Positions 2,573 to 35,884 of a DNA stretch of 37,123 nt are shown in pieces. Made by a program: the position numbers and the translations under genes. The notes beneath the pieces were generated by a model that ran no database searches, was not told the DNA's origin, and worked only from the letters and a program-made list of their open reading frames with translations. The stretch's first letter is position 1; each line of letters opens with the position of its first letter. This DNA is from a virus (lineage: Duplodnaviria > Heunggongvirae > Uroviricota > Caudoviricetes). The stretch is from positions 1 to 37,123 of the IMG/VR virus record IMGVR_UViG_2713896795_000003. One strand, written 5' to 3'.

Positions 2573-3043
2573 CTAATAAAACACCCAATTTTCTGTTTCT
2601 TGGTTGTGTCCAAAGTTATATTCAATATCTGGTGTTGATGTATCAATATTCTTCATCCCATCAACAAGAGTTGATACAACAGCCAAATCTTGTTTGATTC
2701 TCATCAAATGGTATTTCTTCCGGCGCAATAAACTTTCAATGGCAAGTTTCTTCGTCGGGAATGCAAAAGATCTTTCTGCATTTTTTGCTACTTTCTTAAT
2801 TGCATATCTATTTCTCCTTTGTTTCCATTCCTGTAACCACAGATTTGGTGCTGGTTTAAAATTAACAATCCAATGCGCAGGAACCAACCATGCATAATGC
2901 TCTGTCTGATGAAAAGCTATATATTGAAGTGCGAATATTTTGATTCCATCTTCTTCAACTGTCGCTTGGAATCTCCAGAAAACAGGCATTCCCTCATGTT
3001 CAGTTTCTGATTCAGGAAAAGGTACGCTCCATGATTTTGTCAT
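2573..3043 (-). CDS. Hypothetical protein (156 aa)
   Basis: ATG at 3043 with GAGGTG SD; no recognisable family. Confidence 0.6.
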   Translation of the reverse strand: MTKSWSVPFPESETEHEGMPVFWRFQATVEEDGIKIFALQYIAFHQTEHYAWLVPAHWIVNFKPAPNLWLQEWKQRRNRYAIKKVAKNAERSFAFPTKKLAIESLLRRKKYHLMRIKQDLAVVSTLVDGMKNIDTSTPDIEYNFGHNQETENWVFY

Positions 3044-3106
3044 ATCTCACCTCAAATAATTCAGTGCAGTGTTTATTCTGTTGTTTATGCCAAAAATAAA
3101 GGACGA

Positions 3107-3730
3107 TTATGCGACCTCGGAAGGAAGTCCAATCATCTTATTCAAATCTTCTACCCGTAAAGCAGGAAGTGCTGTACTTGCTTTATCTGCTTCTTTTGGT
3201 AGCAACTCTTTGCTTTCAGGCCAAACTTCAATAAGTCGCTTAACTGTTGTGACTGAGTTCAAAGCAGCCCATACATTTGATTCGATATCCTTTTTCTTGG
3301 CTTCAAGTTTTTGTTGCAATGCGCAGATTTCATCAAACCTTTTTGTTATTTCGTGTTCTGCGTCAAACATGCATTTATCTTTTTCTGGGGTGGGGAGCAA
3401 TATATCTTCACCGTTGCCGTCTTTTCCGTATGAATGCCAGCCAACCCTTCTTCCAGATACAGTCAGATAAATCGAAGTAGAACGAACATCGCATGAGTAA
3501 AATGAACATCCCATCTTCTCAAGTTCTTCACTTATAGCTGCTAACTTGGATGATAACCGATCCACTTCCTCAGTTTTCTTTTTACCGCCAAACGCAATAA
3601 CTCTGGCGTCAAGTGCAAGCTGGTTCTTTAACTTTGTTACTTCTTCAAGTTCAGTGAAAACCCCAGACTTAATTAAAGCGTTACGAGCGATTTCCTCTTT
3701 CATTCTCGTAGTTAAGCGGATTGATGACAT
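3107..3730 (-). CDS. Hypothetical protein (207 aa)
   Basis: ATG at 3730 (MSSIRLTT...) with GAGGAA SD just after N stop; the longer ORF-track frame overlaps N 3-prime end; no recognisable family. Confidence 0.6.
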   Translation of the reverse strand: MSSIRLTTRMKEEIARNALIKSGVFTELEEVTKLKNQLALDARVIAFGGKKKTEEVDRLSSKLAAISEELEKMGCSFYSCDVRSTSIYLTVSGRRVGWHSYGKDGNGEDILLPTPEKDKCMFDAEHEITKRFDEICALQQKLEAKKKDIESNVWAALNSVTTVKRLIEVWPESKELLPKEADKASTALPALRVEDLNKMIGLPSEVA

Positions 3731-3741
3731 ATTAATTCCTC

Positions 3742-4041
3742 TCAAATAAGTGGTTTGCTGCCTAATTTCATTTTCTGGCGACCAACACAAGTCACCCCCA
3801 TTTCACTGCGTGGCTTGCGGTAGTAAATACGGTTCTGTTTACGCTCGACTTCTTCTGCCTTCTTGCAGCGAAGGCTTCCGAGTGATGCTGCTTTATCTGC
3901 TCTGACGCAACCAGAGAGCTTTAGCGCAATTTTTCGCGCCAGTCGCTGCTCTTGCATTGCCTGTTCACGTTGAGCCTGTCTGCGTGCTCTGCGGCGATTT
4001 CTGGCGTTATCGTCAGCCAGATATGTAATGACTACTGTCAT
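3742..4041 (-). CDS. N: Antitermination protein N-like
   Basis: Arginine-rich motif NARNRRRARRQAQ near N-terminus; C-terminus ...VTCVGRQKMKLGSKPLI resembles lambda N ...ITCSGRQKIKGKSIPLI; GGAGG SD; sits downstream of nutL on the pL transcript. Confidence 0.75.
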   Translation of the reverse strand: MTVVITYLADDNARNRRRARRQAQREQAMQEQRLARKIALKLSGCVRADKAASLGSLRCKKAEEVERKQNRIYYRKPRSEMGVTCVGRQKMKLGSKPLI

Positions 4042-4354
4042 GTTGACCTCCGATGAAACAACTTTGGAAATTTTTTTATTACAAAGTGGTTTCCTTCCCC
4101 GCCAATTAGACGGGGATGGAAGAGCATTTATGAGCCTTCATGGACTCTGCTCGATCAGTTCTATTTAATTAATCTCTCAACTGAATGTAAGTATTCACAT
4201 AAATCCTCCTACCTCTTGTGCAGCTTTCTTGAATATGGTGGCGGCTGCATAACGCCTATGGAATTGACTTTGGCGGTGACGCGCCGGGTGCTTATCTTCC
4301 GGTTGCCGTCGTGCAGCTGCACTTCACGTCACCCCAAAGCCAACTACTCTTTGG

Positions 4355-4397
4355 TTCCCGCATTTCGGCGGGACAATCCCATCAATGTTAAAGAGCC
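4355..4397 (-). promoter_or_regulatory. nutL (boxA GCTCTTTAACA + boxB hairpin)
   Basis: Minus-strand reading gives GGCTCTTTAACA, 12-nt spacer, then hairpin TCCCGC-CGAAAT-GCGGGA; exact inverted copy of the element downstream of cro. Confidence 0.6.
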
Positions 4398-4436
4398 TGC
4401 CAATCTGTTCCGTTTGGCTTCCAGCGTCCTGCTGAT

Positions 4437-4510
4437 GGCTTAAATTTAAGATCTCTTTAATTAATGGTCAAGAGTATTTTTGAAGAAAACTTAAATTTTC
4501 TTTCGTAACT
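4437..4510. promoter_or_regulatory. pL promoter with OL operators
   Basis: Minus-strand -35 TTGACC (4466-4471) and -10 TTAAAT (4444-4449) with 16-nt spacer; 18-bp ATTTAAG-N4-CTTTAAT operator at 4444-4461 and weaker TTAAG-type repeats to 4510. Confidence 0.45.
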
Positions 4511-4533
4511 TAAGTTTGGCTTTGATTTTTAAA

Positions 4534-4562
4534 GGAAATAAAAAAAGGGGCGAATGCCCCTT
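4534..4562 (-). terminator. Intrinsic terminator downstream of repressor gene
   Basis: Minus-strand hairpin GGGGCattcGCCCC followed by TTTTTTTATTT, starting at the cI stop codon. Confidence 0.7.
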
Positions 4563-5211
4563 ATGGAAGGTTTGCTAGTTTTGCATCGACAACTACGCCG
4601 ATGATTTTGCAGTTTCCGTTGATCTCGATCATCGGATATTGTGGGTTAAGTGGTTTTAGAAACTTCCTGCCTGCATCAATAACTAACTTTTTGAAAGTTG
4701 CCTCGTTTTCTCCTTCGAGCTTTGCAACTACCAGTTTCCCGTTACGCGGCTCTACTTCAGGATCGACGAGTATTATCATTCCTTCAGGGATACTGAGACC
4801 GGCTGGAGCCGTCATTGAGTCTCCCTTCACGTCCAACCAAAACGAATCTTCTGAACAGTCTACGGTTGTATCGTACCAGTTATCTATTGCACGCTTATGA
4901 TATGGTTCTACAGCTTCCATCCAGCATCCTGCGCTCACCCAGCTAATCAGAGGGTATGACCCTCTTGGATCATGCCTACTGTGATAGGCAATGTTTGAAA
5001 GACTTTCCTCTCCTTTCATCAGATAGTCAGGGGAACACTTCAACGCATTAGCCAGGGCGAGAAGATTCTCTCCATTTGGCTCTGTCTCAGAGCGTTCCCA
5101 CTGAGATATGGCAACATTAGACACGCCGACCATCTTTCCAAGTGCGGCCTGCCTGATCTTGAGTTCTTTTCTCCGAGCGCGAATGCGCTCTCCCATCAAT
5201 TGAGTTTTCAT
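4561..5211 (-). CDS. c2: CI-type repressor (P22 c2-like; HTH + S24 LexA-like autocleavage domain)
   Basis: 216 aa; N-terminal HTH; C-terminal FWLDVKGDSMTAPAGL...ATFKKL...PLNPQYPMIEINGNCKIIGVV matches lambda CI / P22 C2 from memory; leaderless ATG abutting OR3. Confidence 0.9.
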   Translation of the reverse strand: MKTQLMGERIRARRKELKIRQAALGKMVGVSNVAISQWERSETEPNGENLLALANALKCSPDYLMKGEESLSNIAYHSRHDPRGSYPLISWVSAGCWMEAVEPYHKRAIDNWYDTTVDCSEDSFWLDVKGDSMTAPAGLSIPEGMIILVDPEVEPRNGKLVVAKLEGENEATFKKLVIDAGRKFLKPLNPQYPMIEINGNCKIIGVVVDAKLANLP

Positions 5212-12248: not shown

Positions 12249-12572
12249 ATGAAGATGCCAGAAAAACATGACCTGTTAGCCGCCATTCTCGCGGCAAAGG
12301 AACAAGGCATCGGGGCAATCCTTGCGTTTGCAATGGCGTACCTTCGCGGCAGATATAATGGCGGTGCGTTTACAAAAACAGTAATCGACGCAACGATGTG
12401 CGCCATTATCGCCTGGTTCATTCGTGACCTTCTCGACTTCGCCGGACTAAGTAGCAATCTCGCTTATATAACGAGCGTGTTCATCGGCTACATCGGTACT
12501 GACTCGATTGGTTCGCTTATCAAACGCTTCGCTGCTAAAAAAGCCGGAGTAGAAGATGGTGGAAATCAATAA
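12249..12572 (+). CDS. S: Holin/antiholin S (dual start MKM)
   Basis: [34 protein letters not shown]... matches lambda S from memory. Confidence 0.9.
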
Positions 12573-13032
12573 TCAACGTAAGGCGTTCCTCGATATGCTG
12601 GCGTGGTCAGAGGGAACTGATAACGGACGTCAGAAAACCAGAAATCATGGTTATGACGTCATTGTTGGTGGAGAGCTATTCACTGATTACTCCGATCACC
12701 CTCGCAAACTTGTCACGCTAAACCCAAAACTCAAATCAACAGCAGCCGGGCGCTATCAGCTTCTTTCCCGTTGGTGGGATGCCTATCGTAAGCAGCTTGG
12801 CTTGAAAGATTTCTCTCCGAAAAGCCAGGACGCAGTTGCACTGCAGCAGATTAAAGAGCGTGGCGCTTTACCTATGATTGATCGCGGTGATATCCGTCAG
12901 GCAATCGACCGTTGCAGCAATATCTGGGCTTCACTGCCGGGCGCTGGTTATGGTCAGTTCGAGCATAAGGCTGACAGCCTGATTGCAAAATTCAAAGAGG
13001 CTGGCGGAACGGTCAGAGAGATTGAGGTATGA
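12556..13032 (+). CDS. R: Endolysin R (lytic transglycosylase)
   Basis: [39 protein letters not shown]... matches lambda R from memory. Confidence 0.9.
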
Positions 13033-13496
13033 GCAGAGTAACCGCGATTATCTCCGCTCTGGTTATCTGCATCATCGTCTGCCTGTCATGGGCTGTTAAT
13101 CATTACCGTGATAACGCCATGACCTACAAAGAGCAGCTCGATAAAAAAGTCAGTGAGATGAAGCAGGCGACTGCCACCATTACTGACATGCAGCGGCGCC
13201 AGCGTACTGCTGATGCACTTGATGCTAAATACACGAAGGAGTTAGCTGATGCGAAAGCTGAAAATGATGCTCTTCGGCGCAAGCTTGATAATGGTGGCAG
13301 GGTGCTCGTCAAAGGAAAATGCCCTGTGCCATCCTCAGCCGAAACCTCCAGCACCTCCGGCATGGGCAATGATGCCACCGTCGAACTCTCTCCAGTTGCT
13401 GGACGAAACGTTCTCGGTATTCGGGACGGAATCATCAGCGACCAAACAGCACTGAGAACGCTTCAGGAATACATCAGGACGCAATGCCTTCGATGA
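13029..13496 (+). CDS. Rz: i-spanin Rz
   Basis: N-terminal [32 protein letters not shown] like lambda Rz; C-terminal half divergent. Confidence 0.8.
13249..13455 (+). CDS. Rz1: o-spanin Rz1 (lipoprotein) embedded in Rz in the +1 frame
   Basis: [22 protein letters not shown]... with lipobox VAGC and proline-rich stretch; AAGGAG SD 8 nt upstream. Confidence 0.7.
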
Positions 13497-25443: not shown

Positions 25444-26784
25444 ATGGCTACTTGGCAAGGATCAAATGGCGGATTGTTGGCTGGTATCGGCGGCGTCAAC
25501 TCAAACGCTCCGAGCGTAAATGACATCGGCAATACGCTTCAGCTTATCAGGCAGAACAATGATATTGAGCGTTCAGGCGCTAACAATGTTGGGCTGACTG
25601 CTTTGCAAGGCCTTTCAGGTATTGCAGGGGTGTTTCAGCAGGAAAAGCAGGCTCAGCGGCAGAAAGAATTTCAGCAGGCGTACGCTAATGCTTATGCGTC
25701 TGGTGATCGCGGTGCTTTGCGTCAGTTGGCTACTCAATATCCAGACCAGATTGAATCCGTTCGTAAAGGCATGGGATTCATTGATGAAGACCAGCGCAAT
25801 TCTATCGGCACCTTAGCGGCTGGCGCTCGTCTTGCGGCATCGTCTCCAGAAGCAATGCAATCATGGCTGCAAAACAACGCCAAGGAACTGACTCGCGTCG
25901 GTGTTGACCCTAATAACGTTGCTCAGATGTATCAGCAGAATCCTTCAGGATTTGGTGAGTTTGTTGATCACCTTGGGATGGCTGCGCTTGGTCCGATTGA
26001 TTACTTCAATGTTCAGGACAAGATGGCTGGTCGCCAACTTGAGAAAGGGCGATTGGATGAAAGCATCCGTCAGGCTGACATGGAGAACGCGAGAGGATGG
26101 GCAAATATCCAAAACGCTCAACTAGACAGGGCTCAGCGGGCACAAATGCATAATGATAACGTAGCCCTGAAGTTGCAGGAATTAGGGATGAAACAACAGG
26201 AAAGCGGAAAGATTGACCCAAAACTTGTTCGAGATCTGAATAGTGATATTAATGGGTTCTCAAAGAATTATTCTGCAATGCGCAGTGCTTCTGACAACCT
26301 ACAAGCCCTTGGGAAGCGCAACACTCCAGCCGCGCAGTTGGGAATGATTTTCAACTATATGAAATCGCTGGATCCGCAATCTGTGGTACGCGAAGGTGAG
26401 CAAGTGCAGGTAAAACGCACTGATGGAATATTCGGCACACTTGGTAACTATGTTAGCCAATTATCTAACGGCAAGATGCTGAATAATGAGCAAGTCCAAG
26501 ACTTAATCAACACCTCAAAACTGATGGCAAATACTGAAGGCGAAAAGTTTAATCAGCAAATGGATGATTATCTTTCAACTTATGGAGATTCTCTCCCCAG
26601 CGGACTAACTAAGCAATTGCAATCCAGAAAAGCCAAGCTGTATGAAGATATTCAGCAGCCTGCGCAACAACAGACACAACAAGCAACATCTGGCGGTCAA
26701 ACATTTCGAGAAGGTATGACCGCGAAAAATCCTAAAACTGGTCAGAAAATTATTTACAGGAACGGACAATGGCAACCAATGTAG
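25444..26784 (+). CDS. Ejection protein (P22 gp20-like)
   Basis: 446 aa; synteny. Confidence 0.7.
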   Translation: MATWQGSNGGLLAGIGGVNSNAPSVNDIGNTLQLIRQNNDIERSGANNVGLTALQGLSGIAGVFQQEKQAQRQKEFQQAYANAYASGDRGALRQLATQYPDQIESVRKGMGFIDEDQRNSIGTLAAGARLAASSPEAMQSWLQNNAKELTRVGVDPNNVAQMYQQNPSGFGEFVDHLGMAALGPIDYFNVQDKMAGRQLEKGRLDESIRQADMENARGWANIQNAQLDRAQRAQMHNDNVALKLQELGMKQQESGKIDPKLVRDLNSDINGFSKNYSAMRSASDNLQALGKRNTPAAQLGMIFNYMKSLDPQSVVREGEQVQVKRTDGIFGTLGNYVSQLSNGKMLNNEQVQDLINTSKLMANTEGEKFNQQMDDYLSTYGDSLPSGLTKQLQSRKAKLYEDIQQPAQQQTQQATSGGQTFREGMTAKNPKTGQKIIYRNGQWQPM

Positions 26785-28892
26785 GTTTACCAGAGGGGTT
26801 TGTTCTGGATGAACAGCCTGATAACTCACAACTTCCTGATGGCTTTGTGCTTGATTCCCAACCAGAACAGCAGCAATCTCCTTTGGTTTCACCAGAGGAA
26901 AATTCCAGACAGGAAAATGTTGTTAATAATGCTAACGGTTTCGACCGTTTTATGTATGGCGTTCTCAGTGGATTGATGGATGTTGGTAAAGGTGTTGGCC
27001 TGTTTCAGGATATGACACCAGAAGAGCAAGCCGCAATTCAGTCTCTACAGCAGAAGTTAGCGGCAAAACCATCAACCGCACAAGATGTTGGTGAGTTTGT
27101 TGGACAAGCAGCGCCATTTGTTAGTGGTGGTGGGATTATTTCTCAGGTTCCGAAAGGGGCGGCAAGGCTGGCTGCCGCCGCAGGGCTTGGTGCTGGAGAA
27201 GGGGCTATTGTAGCCAATGGAACAAATAGCGATGTTGCTTCCGGCGCTGCTATTGGCGCTGTGGCTGGCCCTGTAGCCGAGATTGTTGGTCCAGCGCTTG
27301 GGAAGATTGCAGGAAAAATTAAAAATAGTGCCGGAGATATTTATCGCTCATCCGTAGGGATGGGCAGTAAATCATCTAAAGCAACGTTAAAGAAAGCTGC
27401 TGGTGCAATGGATAATAAATTTATTGGTGGGCAACGAGCTATTCAAGATTTCGCCGATGAAGTTAATCCTGATTTTAACGCGATAAATGCTATTCGTGAG
27501 CTAGAACTGGAAAATTATGCCACTCCAGGCATGATCTCTAATAATCCTGCTGTCAGGGCTCTTGATAATGCAGTGGCAAGTCTCCCTGGAACAGAGATTA
27601 GTGAGGCGCATAAGCGTTTTATTACTGAATTAGGAAGAAAAGCTGATGAAATGATAACTTCATTTGGGGGAAACCTTGATAAGCAACTGGTTTCTGACAG
27701 GCTTGCAGATAATTTTGATAAAACCATTTCATCATTACAAAATCAGTCAGATAACATCTACAACAAAATTGCCGAAAAGGTACCTGTAAGAGACCGGATT
27801 GAGGCAACTAATACATTGAATTTTTTAGAGGATTTTGCTGATGACATAGGTGGAATTGATGAATTATCTCCAATAATGAAGCGGACATTGAACCGACTTG
27901 ATCCAAACACCTTGCCAACGTATGGGCGTTTAGATCTCGCTAGAAAGCAGGTTGGACAAGCTATTGGCAAAGGCTCTGGTCCATTCAAGGATGAAGAAAC
28001 AGGTGTTCTTAAAAAGTTATATGCAGCCATAACAGATGACCAACAGGCTGTCGCAGAAAAATATGGCGCAGGGGAATTATGGACGCTTGGTAAGGAGTTG
28101 GTAAAAAAACGAAAATCCATTGAAGATGATGCTGTAACCGTCTTGGGTAGAAAACTTCAGCAATCAGCAATTCCAAAAGTTGAAAGTGCTGTTGTTAATA
28201 TGGCAAAAGGAAACGGTGGCGACTTTAGGCAATTAATGAAGTCGATTCCAAAGGATATGCGGCAGGAAGTTGCGCTCACCTCAATGAATAAAGCATTTAC
28301 CAGCTATGCCAAATCACCTGGTCAGCAATTAGGAGTTGATGGATTTGTAAAATGGTATAACGGAATGTCACGCAATGGGGCCAATATGAAGGCTCTCCGT
28401 GATGCTATTGGCACAGATGCATCAAAGCGCCTTGATACGATTTATCAAGCAGCTAAGGCTATGAATAGACTCAATACTGGTAAGCAGTATGCTAGTAGTC
28501 TTGTGGATCAGCAAGTTAATAACTTTCTGAAAGAAAAGGGTAGTCTCGCAAAAATTTATGGAATAGCCTCAAAAGCTGCTGCGGCGGAAGGTATTACAAG
28601 CTTATCTGGTCTTCCTGGTGTAGGTGCAACAGGGGTGATAACGTCCGCATTGATGTCAGGGAAAACAAGCAGGATAAAGGCTGCTGATGCTCTACTGTCT
28701 TCTCCTGAGTTTAAATCAATGCTATTTCGCCTGCAAAACGCACCAGTAGACAGAGCAGAAGTGAGACGCGTAATAGAAAGGAAACTGATGCAATCTGGGG
28801 CATTTAAGAGATGGGAGAAAACCTTATCAACAGATGAAGCAAAAACCATTGCCCGCACGGGGATTATTACATGGCTCGCTAGTGACAGTTAG
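26769..28892 (+). CDS. Ejection protein (P22 gp16-like)
   Basis: 707 aa; synteny; start overlaps gp20 3-prime end. Confidence 0.7.
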   Translation: MATNVGLPEGFVLDEQPDNSQLPDGFVLDSQPEQQQSPLVSPEENSRQENVVNNANGFDRFMYGVLSGLMDVGKGVGLFQDMTPEEQAAIQSLQQKLAAKPSTAQDVGEFVGQAAPFVSGGGIISQVPKGAARLAAAAGLGAGEGAIVANGTNSDVASGAAIGAVAGPVAEIVGPALGKIAGKIKNSAGDIYRSSVGMGSKSSKATLKKAAGAMDNKFIGGQRAIQDFADEVNPDFNAINAIRELELENYATPGMISNNPAVRALDNAVASLPGTEISEAHKRFITELGRKADEMITSFGGNLDKQLVSDRLADNFDKTISSLQNQSDNIYNKIAEKVPVRDRIEATNTLNFLEDFADDIGGIDELSPIMKRTLNRLDPNTLPTYGRLDLARKQVGQAIGKGSGPFKDEETGVLKKLYAAITDDQQAVAEKYGAGELWTLGKELVKKRKSIEDDAVTVLGRKLQQSAIPKVESAVVNMAKGNGGDFRQLMKSIPKDMRQEVALTSMNKAFTSYAKSPGQQLGVDGFVKWYNGMSRNGANMKALRDAIGTDASKRLDTIYQAAKAMNRLNTGKQYASSLVDQQVNNFLKEKGSLAKIYGIASKAAAAEGITSLSGLPGVGATGVITSALMSGKTSRIKAADALLSSPEFKSMLFRLQNAPVDRAEVRRVIERKLMQSGAFKRWEKTLSTDEAKTIARTGIITWLASDS

Positions 28893-29116
28893 TCAACTTT
28901 GGTTATTTTGCCTTCTTTTTCTTGATGAACTTTGCATCCATCATCTTTTGATAGCCAAACTAAAAACTTTAAAACCTTAAACACAAGTACGGCTACTGCA
29001 ATGAAAGCACCAATCGCAATTATTGCTAGTGAAATTATTTGCATTGGTGCTTTTAATGCTGGGAAAACAGTGTAAATGAGCAAAAAAACAGCAATTATGA
29101 TGAGCCATTGCTTCAT
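28889..29116 (-). CDS. Hypothetical small membrane protein (75 aa, two predicted TM helices)
   Basis: ATG with GGGAGGA SD; hydrophobic stretches WLIIIAVFLLIYTVF and IISLAIIAIGAFIAVAVLVFKVL; 3-prime end overlaps gp16 stop convergently. Confidence 0.6.
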   Translation of the reverse strand: MKQWLIIIAVFLLIYTVFPALKAPMQIISLAIIAIGAFIAVAVLVFKVLKFLVWLSKDDGCKVHQEKEGKITKVD

Positions 29117-29144
29117 GTTGTCCTCCCAGGTTTTATTGGTAAGA

Positions 29145-29705
29145 TCACTGCTTTATTTTGGTATCATGGGTTTCACTAGCGGCTTCCTTCGCAGTCGGCT
29201 CAGAAACCTTGAAGTAAGATTGAATCTGCGGAAGCGTTATGATTACCGCAAGCATAGCGAGAACCGCACCAACGAGCCATTGGGTCGCGGTCATGGATGT
29301 TTTAATGCCATCAATTTGACCTTTGAGCCCTGCAACTTCGCCATTGCTAGCGAATATCTGTCCCTTAATTTCATTAAGTGACTGATTCATAGCTGTAAAT
29401 TGCTTAGATTGGAATTCTCTGAAAGCTGAAATTTCAGCGCGCATGTTAGCAGATATTAACTCAATTTCTGCTTTGTTTTGACCAAGCTTCGCGTCAATCT
29501 CTTCTCTTGATGGGCTGCCCATAGCATGCTCCTCAGTGTATTGTTTTCCAAGATAAGCGATATTATTGTTTTTGGTTATATCATTCTTGGTAACTGGAGG
29601 CGAAGCATTGGACTTTTCTCCTATGCCACCTGTCGACCCCATACGACCAAGCGTTCTCTTTTTCTCCGCTGCATGATCAGCATTTACGGCAGGAAAAGTA
29701 ATCAT
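29145..29705 (-). CDS. Hypothetical membrane-anchored coiled-coil protein (186 aa; alternative 125-aa form from ATG 29522)
   Basis: Heptad-like central region and C-terminal TM WLVGAVLAMLAVIITL; ATG 29705 has poor SD whereas internal ATG 29522 has GAGGAG at -7. Confidence 0.55.
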   Translation of the reverse strand: MITFPAVNADHAAEKKRTLGRMGSTGGIGEKSNASPPVTKNDITKNNNIAYLGKQYTEEHAMGSPSREEIDAKLGQNKAEIELISANMRAEISAFREFQSKQFTAMNQSLNEIKGQIFASNGEVAGLKGQIDGIKTSMTATQWLVGAVLAMLAVIITLPQIQSYFKVSEPTAKEAASETHDTKIKQ

Positions 29706-29712
29706 GGCTCTG

Positions 29713-29991
29713 TCAGCTTAATTTTTTTGATTCTTCGTGTTGAGAAACTATATACTTAGCCAGTTCAAGAAGTTGATTTTCACTCATGCGAATGTTGGCA
29801 ATTTGGTATCTAACTGGCTGAATCTCCTCATTATTAACCCAGTCTGAAACATGCTTAAAAAATGCTATTGAACCAAATCTTGCTCCGACATCCCCAAAAG
29901 ACGAGTAAGCAAATCCATCAGCATACTCATTTACAGCATCACTTGAGTCCTTGAAGATGGTTTCTCTGAAGTTCACTTTGGTATCTGTCAT
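29713..29991 (-). CDS. Hypothetical protein (92 aa)
   Basis: ATG 2 nt after mnt stop with AAGGA SD inside mnt 3-prime end (translational coupling). Confidence 0.55.
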   Translation of the reverse strand: MTDTKVNFRETIFKDSSDAVNEYADGFAYSSFGDVGARFGSIAFFKHVSDWVNNEEIQPVRYQIANIRMSENQLLELAKYIVSQHEESKKLS

Positions 29992-29993
29992 AT

Positions 29994-30242
29994 TTATTTA
30001 TCCTTACCATACATGGTCTTTAGCGTCTCAACATCGTGTTCAAGATCTATCAATCGTGATGCTATAGTTGCAAGGTCTAGTGCTTGAATGTGTTTATTTT
30101 TTTCGGTCCACGCTTCAAGTGCCGCGACCATCTCAGCATTTAATGAACGAGAATTAGCCTCAGCAAGTTCAATAAGACGTTCCTTTATCTCTACAGGAAG
30201 CCTCAGATTCACTTGAGGGTTTTTGTACTTACGATCAGACAT
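29994..30242 (-). CDS. mnt: Mnt-like ribbon-helix-helix repressor
   Basis: 82 aa; RHH motif VNLRLPVEIKERLIELAEANSRSLNAEMVAAL resembles P22 Mnt, plus C-terminal helical tail; divergent from arc. Confidence 0.65.
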   Translation of the reverse strand: MSDRKYKNPQVNLRLPVEIKERLIELAEANSRSLNAEMVAALEAWTEKNKHIQALDLATIASRLIDLEHDVETLKTMYGKDK

Positions 30243-30263
30243 CGCCGCATCCTGAATAATTTT

Positions 30264-30335
30264 TTACCACAGGATATGTAGGTATCTATTGACTATCAAT
30301 GCGTACCTAAATACTATGTATGCGTACCACATACA
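30264..30335. promoter_or_regulatory. Divergent overlapping promoters (Pmnt leftward, Pant rightward) with palindromic operators
   Basis: Pant -35 TTGACT 30289-30294 / -10 TACTAT 30312-30317; Pmnt -35 TTGATA (plus 30294-30299) / -10 TATCCT (plus 30271-30276); nested palindrome TAGGTA...ATTGA-cta-TCAAT...TACCTA 30279-30309; palindrome TGTATG-N7-CATACA 30317-30335. Confidence 0.5.
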
Positions 30336-30347
30336 ACGGAGGATACA

Positions 30348-30488
30348 ATGAAGGTTAAAACACTGCGTATGCCAGAGAAGCTAGAAAAAATTCTTGAAGA
30401 AAAAGCAAAGGAAGAGTGTCGCTCATTCAGTGCAGAAGTAATTAAACGGGTGCTGGACAGCCTGAAGAGGGAGGGGGTAACAGTGTGA
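30348..30488 (+). CDS. arc: Arc-like ribbon-helix-helix repressor (46 aa)
   Basis: Hand-translated MKVKTLRMPEKLEKILEEKAKEECRSFSAEVIKRVLDSLKREGVTV resembles P22 Arc; GGAGG SD 7 nt before ATG. Confidence 0.6.
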   Translation: MKVKTLRMPEKLEKILEEKAKEECRSFSAEVIKRVLDSLKREGVTV

Positions 30489-30658
30489 TTTGCTTGGATG
30501 CAGTAGTCAAAGAGATTGTGCTTACCATTTTGAGACCAAATTTTGTTCATGGCGAATCATTTGGCGCGAACGAAAAATTGAGAAGAGAAAGAGTATTCAG
30601 TGGCAAGCGCACGTTTTCAGAAGTGATGCTTGATGCGGCAAAGAAATCAAAACAGTGA
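30485..30658 (+). CDS. Hypothetical small ORF (57 codons, GTG start)
   Basis: GTG overlaps arc stop (GTGTGA) with G-rich SD; no ATG alternative; may instead be non-coding spacer. Confidence 0.2.
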   Translation: MICLDAVVKEIVLTILRPNFVHGESFGANEKLRRERVFSGKRTFSEVMLDAAKKSKQ

Positions 30659-30721
30659 AGCCCCAACTGCGGGAACAGTCAGGGCTTCGGTATCGTAAAA
30701 CCACGCATAGGAATTAACGAC
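30645..30721 (-). ncRNA. sar: Candidate sar-like antisense RNA covering the ant translation initiation region
   Basis: Minus-strand promoter -35 TTGATA (plus 30751-30756), 17-nt spacer, -10 TATACT (plus 30728-30733); minus-strand hairpin GAAGCCC...GGGCTTC (30657-30688) followed by U-rich tract. Confidence 0.4.
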
Positions 30722-31645
30722 ATGAAAAGTATAGCAACAGCAGTATCTACTATCAATGTACCATTCCACGGCGCAGAGCTTTATGTTGTCAATCACAACG
30801 GCGAACCGTACACCCCAATGAAACCTATCGTTGAGGGAATGGGGCTAGACTGGAAATCTCAACATAAGAAGATTTCTCAACGCTTCTCGAAGGGTATGGT
30901 GGAAATCACCATACCTTCTGCCGGTGGGGTGCAAGCCATGATTTGTATGGCTTTACGAAAATTGGCAGCTTGGTTGAACAGCATCAGTCCTAACAAAGTC
31001 CGCCCTGAAATCCGCGACAAGGTAATCCAGTATCAGGAAGAGTGTGACGATGTGCTCTATGAGTACTGGACTAAAGGCCATGTGGTTAACCCGCGCAAAG
31101 CTAAAAAGGCGTTGCCGGGGAAAATCACCACTGAACAGCAGGAAGCCATTAAACAACTCGTCATGAGTCGTGGTCAGTCTCTGCCAAAAGAAAAACAGGC
31201 GAAGGCAATGATTACCATGTGGTCGTCACTGAAATCCCATTTTGGATGTTCGTACAAAGAAATCAGTGAGGAGCAGTTTACAGAAGCACTGTCACTTGCA
31301 GCTCGAGTTCCACTTGAAGGTGAGTTCATTGGCAAACAAGAGAAGAAAGCAAACGAGCTTTCTGCAAAAGAAGCAAACAGCCTTGTATGGCTATGGGATT
31401 ATGCCAACCGCTCACAGGCATTATTCCGCGAACTTTATCCGGCATTAAAACAAATTCAATCGAACTATTCCGGCAGATGTCATGACTGCGGTTATGAGTT
31501 CTCCCGTATTATCGATATAGCGAGAGACGTTTTAATCAATCACTCACGAGATGTTGATATCAATGAGCCAGACGGACCAACGAATCTTTCCGCATGGATG
31601 AGACTTAAGAATAAAGAATTACCTCCTTCAGTACATAACTACTGA
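30722..31645 (+). CDS. ant: Antirepressor Ant
   Basis: 307 aa; N-terminal region ...LYVVNHNGEPYTPMKPIVEGMGLDWKSQ...LRKLAAWLNSISPNKVRPEIRDKVIQYQEECDDVLYEYW resembles P22 Ant from memory; follows mnt/arc. Confidence 0.8.
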   Translation: MKSIATAVSTINVPFHGAELYVVNHNGEPYTPMKPIVEGMGLDWKSQHKKISQRFSKGMVEITIPSAGGVQAMICMALRKLAAWLNSISPNKVRPEIRDKVIQYQEECDDVLYEYWTKGHVVNPRKAKKALPGKITTEQQEAIKQLVMSRGQSLPKEKQAKAMITMWSSLKSHFGCSYKEISEEQFTEALSLAARVPLEGEFIGKQEKKANELSAKEANSLVWLWDYANRSQALFRELYPALKQIQSNYSGRCHDCGYEFSRIIDIARDVLINHSRDVDINEPDGPTNLSAWMRLKNKELPPSVHNY

Positions 31646-35407: not shown

Positions 35408-35884
35408 TTAACTAAACATCGCAGTAATCGAGGCACTCGCCAGAGAGTGAAAATGAACGTTAAACCCGACCATCGCGCCGCTGGCACCTTCATCGACATC
35501 AATACGTTCTACATCCAGCGCGTGAACGGTAAAAATGTAGCGATGGGTTTCGCCTTTCGGCGGCGCTGCGCCATCGTACCCGGTTTTACCAAAGTCGGTA
35601 CGCGTCTGCAAAACGCCGTCTGGCATAGCTACCAGACCAGAGCCAAACCCTTGCGGTAATACGCGGGTATCAGCGGGTAAATTAACAACTACCCAGTGCC
35701 ACCAGCCGGAGCCGGTTGGCGCATCCGGGTCATAGCAGGTGACAACAAAACTTTTCGTTCCCACAGGAACATCATCCCACGCCAGATGCGGTGAAATATT
35801 ATCGCCATCGTAACCCATGCCGTTAAAGACATGACGATGCGGCAGCTTATCGCCATCGCGCAGATCGTTACTGATGAGTTTCAT
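35408..35884 (-). CDS. ybhB: YbhB (PEBP/RKIP-family protein), host gene
   Basis: 158 aa MKLISNDLRDGDKLPHRHVFNGMGYDGDNISPHLAWDDVP... recognised as E. coli YbhB; GGAGGC SD. Confidence 0.9.
   Translation of the reverse strand: MKLISNDLRDGDKLPHRHVFNGMGYDGDNISPHLAWDDVPVGTKSFVVTCYDPDAPTGSGWWHWVVVNLPADTRVLPQGFGSGLVAMPDGVLQTRTDFGKTGYDGAAPPKGETHRYIFTVHALDVERIDVDEGASGAMVGFNVHFHSLASASITAMFS

Follow-up and report, generated by a model that had tools for sequence, protein, structure and literature searches.

What do the three small genes behind the mnt-like repressor gene of an Escherichia coli prophage do, and do they belong together? The window, meaning the whole stretch of 37,123 nucleotides analysed here (IMG/VR record IMGVR_UViG_2713896795_000003, positions 1 to 37,123), is an almost complete E. 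coli P22-like (Lederbergvirus-type) prophage, and its leftward mnt operon carries the genes that we call gA, gB and gC. An earlier reading of the same DNA, made from its letters alone (the sequence-only reading), had taken the three genes for one candidate module of superinfection exclusion or other membrane-acting defence. Comparison of related loci leads us to a different division. The pair gA-gB is a self-contained mobile two-gene module that travels behind lysogeny repressors, and gC is inherited independently of it. The operon contains the following features (aa, amino acids; TM, transmembrane):

30242-29994, minus strand: mnt-like ribbon-helix-helix repressor gene, 82 aa, first in the leftward operon (Pfam Arc PF03869)
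29991-29713, minus strand: gA, soluble partner protein (type T1, see below), 92 aa (phrog_4231 at 3e-47, function unknown)
29705-29145, minus strand: gB, tail-anchored coiled-coil protein, 186 aa (phrog_5820 at 5e-97, function unknown)
29631-29705, minus strand: gB N-terminal peptide, residues 1-25 (M-I-T-F-P-A-V-N-A-D...), conserved among gA-linked alleles and the proposed gA docking site
29211-29510, minus strand: gB core, residues 66-165, comprising the SREEIDAKL motif, the coiled coil and the TM helix (family alignment)
29217-29279, minus strand: gB TM helix, about residues 143-163 (hydropathy; helical in the model)
29116-28889, minus strand: gC, two-TM inner-membrane protein, 75 aa (phrog_7294 at 2e-50, function unknown)

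All four open reading frames (ORFs) lie on the minus strand where the sequence-only reading had placed them, and they are as tightly packed and co-oriented as it had described, with gaps of 2, 7 and 28 nt between mnt, gA, gB and gC. Its view that gA is soluble and the other two are membrane proteins agrees with the hydropathy of the three products, which have no hydrophobic segment (gA), one (gB) and two TM helices (gC). The three genes are real, judging from their PHROG families, their kept length and order and their constrained substitutions. The codon comparison for gA gives a proportion of nonsynonymous differences (pN) of 0.066 against a saturated synonymous value (pS) of 0.74, and the ratio of nonsynonymous to synonymous substitution rates (dN/dS) for gB is 0.30; both values point to purifying selection. 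For gC, dN/dS is 0.35 in comparison with its distant allele. Two further diverged alleles of the whole set occur in other P22-like prophages, where the order mnt-gA-gB-gC-gene 16 and the length are kept and gB is 60% and 52% identical to that of the window.

The mobility of gA-gB becomes apparent from its occurrence behind different repressors. Loci were collected from scans of genome and viral collections and of plasmids, and were analysed by ORF maps and profile searches. About 20 distinct loci, spread over some ten enterobacterial genera, have a gB-like gene directly after a small soluble partner ORF, and in all but one of these loci the order is repressor, small soluble ORF, gB-like gene. 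The repressor is of the Arc/Mnt type in the window and in loci L012-15, L017, L030 and L031. It is a helix-turn-helix (HTH) protein with Peptidase_S24 domain or a CI-type HTH protein in HK97, HK542, Klebsiella ST15-VIM1phi2.1, Yersinia, Phytobacter, Citrobacter, Buttiauxella and a Providencia plasmid prophage. A Pfam scan of eight upstream genes returned HTH plus Peptidase_S24 for five (cI-like), CI-type HTH for two and Arc plus Repressor_Mnt for one. The C-terminal two-thirds of gB is 35-40% identical to HK97 gp48 and to proteins of HK542, HK244, HK225 and a Klebsiella phage. In HK97, HK542 and the Klebsiella phage, the gB-like gene is located directly downstream of cI and before N, which is the slot of rexAB in lambda, and a small ORF precedes it; the HK97 pair is gp49-gp48. 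A cI-linked pair in a Yersinia lambdoid prophage consists of a true gA homologue (hhalign probability 99.1%, E 1e-18) and a gB homologue, and therefore the same pair serves cI as well as Mnt operons. The interpretation of the sequence-only reading is strengthened here, as gA-gB homologues follow directly after cI in lambdoid prophages too. On a Providencia stuartii IncC plasmid (locus L045, 3676-5399), an HTH repressor gene, a 100-aa ORF and a gB-like gene lie in a prophage-like region of conjugative IncC plasmids.

For gC, we observe a different pattern of inheritance. In other prophages gC likewise adjoins gene 16, the genes that separate it from mnt are quite different, and the mosaic junction falls some tens of nucleotides before the gC start codon. 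Wherever gA-gB follows cI, gC is absent in every case. Where gC stands beside a different, P22-type gp16, identity is only 51%. It is present in 34 of 5426 complete E. coli genomes, compared with 9 of 5426 for gA-gB, and it forms 21 clusters that are all at least 85% identical, with an identical sequence on 619 contigs from E. coli and Salmonella; gC is commoner than gA-gB, but narrow in range. A strong GGAGG Shine-Dalgarno sequence 5' of gC is invariant in six alleles. From these comparisons the three genes do not form one unit, and the idea of a single three-gene module has to be given up. Close gC alleles (window 28889-29116 compared with loci L008 and L012) show a dN/dS of about 0.9-1.6 with changes clustered in the first TM helix, which could reflect a recombination junction inside the gene or diversifying selection.

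The small ORF preceding the gB-like gene is itself variable. At least five partner types are found: gA (T1), an HK97 gp49-like type (T2), a 100-aa type (T3), a 144-aa type (T4) and a CxxC...CxxC type (T5). A relation of T3 to gA is suggestive only (hhalign P = 1e-4, probability 57%), and none was detected among the other types. HK97 gp49 was considered as a relative of gA and rejected, as BLASTP returned nothing and the hhalign probability was 0.6%. We split the gB-like proteins at the SREE motif and compared N-termini and cores separately. Across loci of differing partner type, core identity reaches 88%, and the N-termini of the same proteins score no higher than the background of shuffled sequences. 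Across loci of the same partner type with distant cores (about 30% identity), an N-terminal motif is shared, with local scores of 80-105 compared with a background of 25 +/- 5.5; in T3-linked gB this motif is VDAFxMPAYHEK. Partner type is associated with similarity of the N-termini (permutation p = 2e-4; for the core, p = 0.08). These comparisons show a modular exchange of cassettes, and the exchangeable unit is the partner together with the gB N-terminal peptide. Since partner and peptide are exchanged together, we infer that the two are in physical contact. The gA homologue of Salmonella phage UPF_BP1 precedes a different coiled-coil/TM protein; by eye, the N-terminus of this protein resembles those of gB copies whose partners belong to the closest gA subtype. 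This 149-aa protein has no BLASTP similarity to gB and was not accepted as a gB relative.

The predicted structures of the proteins fit a division into a soluble partner and a membrane-anchored core. The AlphaFold2 (AF2) model of gA is disordered for residues 1-20, followed by three beta strands and a C-terminal helix, with a predicted local distance difference test score (pLDDT) of 73; the COMM domain, a beta3-alpha dimerisation module, is among the closest known systems. In the AF2 model of gB, one continuous helix spans residues 67-157 (pLDDT 75-94), and residues 1-60 and the tail are disordered. The helix starts at SREE(I/L)DAKL, which is conserved in the family, and invariant columns of the family alignment include S66, R67, E68, E69, G146, A150 and P159. 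A single hydrophobic segment is found at about residues 137-165 (Kyte-Doolittle windows of at least 1.6), and small residues are conserved in the TM helix (G146, A150, A153, P159). Since gB has no signal peptide, its N-terminal 140 residues should be cytoplasmic and about 20 residues periplasmic. The gB-like proteins of loci L020, L036, L037 and L038 are otherwise near-identical but carry differing numbers of Pro-Ala dipeptide repeats in their short periplasmic tails. In gC, residues 1-57 are hydrophobic and are read as two TM helices broken at P19-K22-P24, followed by a charged C-terminal tail of 20 residues. Both families of the pair are rare: gA forms 11 clusters, and 1.84e9 proteins searched exhaustively by profile contained only 8 representatives; gB forms 10 clusters at 90% identity (5.8e9 proteins).

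Expression of the operon would be governed by the mnt-like repressor and the control region upstream of it:

30271-30299, minus strand: Pmnt-like promoter, TTGATA-17-TATCCT (consensus scan)
30289-30317, plus strand: Pant-like promoter, TTGACT-17-TACTAT (consensus scan)
30275-30313, no strand assigned: operator-like inverted repeat with 18-nt arms, overlapping both divergent promoter-like sites

The mnt-like protein contains an Arc-type ribbon-helix-helix domain (PF03869, 40.2 bits with a cut-off of 20.4, 3e-10) and is named 'Arc family DNA-binding protein' by the Prokaryotic Genome Annotation Pipeline (PGAP). In a Pfam scan, the Mnt C-terminal tetramerisation domain PF11423 was not matched in this protein; it is found in the mnt relatives of L012, L017 and L031. 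The classical P22 Mnt operator ATAGGTCCACGGTGGACCTAT is located at the equivalent place in related loci. The mnt-side promoter that the sequence-only reading had postulated thus corresponds to a Pmnt-like site with an overlapping operator-like repeat, and mnt-gA-gB-gC, if read from a Mnt-controlled promoter, should be on in the lysogen.

The absence of any resemblance to virion or replication proteins, noted by the sequence-only reading, is borne out. Scans of gA, gB and gC against Pfam, NCBIfam, PHROGs and PADLOC returned only PHROG families of unknown function and sub-threshold coiled-coil matches. When the gB alignment was run as a profile against PDB sequences, generic coiled-coil (SMC) matches were the only ones, at E >= 0.025. 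The closest architectural family is CCDC90/MCUR1-like (PF07798, formerly DUF1640), in which, as in gB, a coiled coil precedes a C-terminal TM helix. Weak matches to the C-terminal half of this profile come from nine of ten gB relatives and from two distant ones (best 1.1e-6), and some gB copies are named 'CCDC90 family protein' by PGAP. All scores, from 21.5 bits for the window gB to 29.1 for the best distant relative, remain below the gathering cut-off of 33.5 bits, and the SREE(I/L)DAKL motif and the proposed N-terminal docking region of gB lie outside that family. A literature search found no functional report on HK97 gp48/gp49, on HK244/HK542, on DUF1640 with phage or on tail-anchored abortive infection (Abi) proteins.

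The closest parallel is lambda RexA/RexB, with which gA-gB shares its operon logic: two genes with a lysogeny repressor, one for a soluble and one for an inner-membrane protein. This layout is found by synteny in about 19 of 20 loci and agrees with the predicted topology, and gA-gB homologues fill the cI-N interval that holds rexAB in lambda. The two pairs differ in that there is no sequence similarity between them, RexB has four TM helices compared with one TM helix plus coiled coil in gB, and RexA is about three times the size of gA.

On this analogy we tentatively read gA-gB, at a little short of even odds, as a lysogen-expressed Rex-like module of sensor and membrane effector. In such a module, the N-terminal peptide of gB would lie in the cytoplasm, followed by a flexible linker, a long coiled-coil helix and one TM helix, and the protein would end in a short periplasmic tail; gA, as a small cytoplasmic beta3-alpha protein, would dock on the N-terminal peptide. 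The cassette of partner and peptide would provide specificity and act as sensor, and the conserved coiled-coil/TM core of gB would serve as effector at the membrane. On infection, a phage-derived cue would be sensed in the cytoplasm and relayed to gB, and perturbation of the membrane would abort or exclude the infection, as for RexA/RexB. Most plausibly, gC would act alone at the sieA position, for example by a SieA- or gp15-like block of entry, and it is a better candidate for an entry block than gA-gB. HK97 gp15 (YebO-like) is a very small prophage-expressed inner-membrane exclusion protein, encoded by a moron beside virion genes (PMC3594210). Small size, inner-membrane location and position in a moron beside virion genes are shared by gC, which differs in having two TM helices and no detected sequence similarity to gp15. 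Some anti-phage role of whatever kind seems somewhat more likely than not from this context. That gA-gB, HK97 gp49-gp48 and their relatives represent an unrecognised class of modular prophage defence built into lysogeny-repressor operons, with swappable sensor cassettes and a conserved tail-anchored coiled-coil effector by which infection is aborted or excluded at the inner membrane, is a possible but doubtful extension.

The joint action envisaged by the sequence-only reading, in which gA, gB and gC together form a SieA-like exclusion device that blocks DNA entry of P22-like phages at the inner membrane, has its attraction in position. P22 SieA lies in the gene 16-mnt slot, gC takes the sieA position convergent with gene 16, and SieA is also located in the membrane. 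SieA differs in being larger and multi-TM and in its motif FxRYPxEAxxFNK, no part of which occurs in any of the six frames of the window, while gB has one TM helix and gC two; Pfam and PHROGs scans found no SieA homology of gA, gB or gC. We consider this device unlikely, as gC and gA-gB are separately inherited, gA-gB also occurs in lambdoid siphophage prophages that lack the gp16/gp20 conduit and gC, and nearly all of gA-gB is predicted to be cytoplasmic, with only about 20 gB residues in the periplasm. The Rex-like reading fits better than a SieA-like block because most of the mass of gA-gB would be cytoplasmic and a variable partner sits on a constant membrane core. Phage-encoded XhlA of PBSX and the XhlA-like holin partners of Gram-positive phages have an N-terminal cytoplasmic coiled coil, a C-terminal TM helix and a small two-TM protein adjoining them. 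An XhlA/XhlB-like holin pair of gB and gC that aids lysis by this phage would match this architecture, gC resembles a class II holin with its two TM helices and charged C-terminal tail, and a protein named 'hemolysin XhlA family' by PGAP occupies the same slot of another prophage (L008, E. coli Res13-Lact-EA06-22). That ORF, 2738-3016 on the plus strand, is encoded on the strand opposite mnt and has no Pfam match. A holin pair is nevertheless highly improbable: window gB and gC match neither XhlA PF10779 nor any holin family in Pfam at E <= 1, the genes lie antisense to late transcription in a repressor operon rather than in a lysis cassette, gC is linked to gB in P22-like prophages only, all lambdoid loci have gB but no gC, and candidate lysis-position ORFs (by position and size, unscanned) are located elsewhere at 12249-13496. 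One gB relative matches Phage_holin_2_1 at 0.017, which is not significant.

Two further explanations concern the prophage itself and its host. RexAB reportedly assists the transition to lytic growth, and gA-gB could similarly tune the lysis-lysogeny switch or induction of its own prophage, for example as a membrane tether that sequesters or releases a small regulator. We regard this as quite unlikely, since the same module occurs with unrelated repressors and unrelated partner types, which is hard to square with a regulatory contact that is specific, one locus is found among tail genes with no repressor near, and the Pfam scan found no match to a DNA-binding family. Alternatively, gA-gB might be a lysogenic-conversion factor for host physiology (envelope stress, stationary-phase survival, virulence) with no anti-phage role. 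This reading is improbable but draws on several observations: morons can act on their hosts in diverse ways (PMC3594210), no phage role is known for tail-anchored coiled-coil proteins of the CCDC90/DUF1640 type, and many carrier strains are enterotoxigenic E. coli (ETEC) or other pathotype isolates. It accounts poorly for the turnover of partner types on a constant core and for the location in the rexAB, bstA and sieA hotspots, both of which are typical of arms-race genes.

Several points weigh against the Rex-like reading itself. The single-TM coiled coil of gB is not an obvious channel, unlike the four-TM RexB. No model of PADLOC-DB 2.0.0 was matched at E <= 1 save a meaningless 2TM match at 0.44, though it was not checked whether this release contains Rex models, and fold searches of PDB and BFVD gave nothing significant and no resemblance to a known defence protein. 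Lysogen expression, gA-gB contact and anti-phage function are all drawn from context; for contact this context is co-variation, and for expression the promoter scan returned no more sites than in shuffled sequence, with position as the one support of the Pmnt-like site. The rarity of the families (gA-gB in 9 of 5426 E. coli genomes, 8 gA cluster representatives) means that a selective benefit, if any, is not broad. Finally, a Pantoea locus (L021/L040, 3462-4465) has the sole partner-plus-gB pair away from a repressor. This pair has tail-type genes as neighbours, as a moron of the classical late-operon kind would.

In a silent prophage, expression is highest in the intervals after cI and mnt, and these have already yielded rexAB, bstA and sieA. 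A so-far unannotated pair recurs in both of these intervals across about ten enterobacterial genera, and its design, in which cassettes of partner and peptide are swapped on a constant membrane core, looks suited to changes of specificity. Lysogen-expressed accessory modules in repressor operons are known as a kind; these protein families and their cassette architecture are not described. Both gA-gB and gC are good candidates for protecting the host against other viruses. Since HK97 genes 49 and 48 belong to the family, the hypothesis is directly testable with existing strains. If gA-gB is a true defence system, its single-TM coiled coil would be a new type of effector, and the family would provide a simple model of sensor exchange. 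If it is not, the family still establishes what occupies the 'rex slot' of many lambdoid phages.

The surroundings of the operon are those of a P22-type prophage:

26769-28892, plus strand: gp16-position ejection protein gene, 707 aa (ORF list; synteny with Inj_translocase and P22_gp7 genes)
30348-30488, plus strand: arc-like repressor gene, 46 aa (Pfam Arc 3.4e-8)
30654-30720, minus strand: sar antisense RNA, between arc and ant (Rfam RF00262, 76.6 bits, gathering score 43)
30722-31645, plus strand: ant antirepressor gene (ORF list; PGAP and Pfam names in near-identical loci)
3742-4041, minus strand: N-like gene, flanking the rex slot of the window
4561-5211, minus strand: cI-type repressor gene, flanking the rex slot of the window

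The gp16-position gene is convergent with gC, with a 4-nt overlap in which the stop codons overlap; its 707-aa product has no Pfam match of its own. The tailspike gene follows ant on the plus strand. With sar present between arc and ant, the P22-type immI region of this prophage is complete, although its operator sequence is unlike that of P22. The flanks are those described by the sequence-only reading, which had placed the genes in the moron slot between the ejection proteins and immI; this gene 16-mnt interval is the documented 'ant moron' in which P22 carries sieA (PMC2629481, PMC10883804). Positions 28700-30400 of the window are 99.6% identical to chromosomal prophages in ETEC and other E. 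coli, and the GC content of the region (0.38-0.44) gives no mark of foreign origin. The ant-moron slot collects toxin/defence-type cargo, as in the example of CUS-3 (L002), where it holds a YafO-toxin-like gene (2671-3090; PF13957, 3e-11) and two mnt copies. The cI-N interval is likewise a known mosaic hotspot with rexAB and bstA (PMC8585504). The window carries its gA-gB pair in the mnt operon rather than in its own rex slot (4042-4560, between the cI-type repressor and the N-like gene), in which no ORF of at least 70 aa is found on the repressor strand. Two further genes of the window lie outside these intervals. In the early left operon, 3107-3790 on the minus strand encodes a 227-aa protein with full-length Nmad5 (nucleotide modification associated domain 5; E 3.8e-71). 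Just past the tailspike gene, 35408-35884 on the minus strand encodes a PEBP/YbhB-type protein (PF01161, 1.4e-41), which probably represents either host DNA or an additional moron at the end of the prophage.

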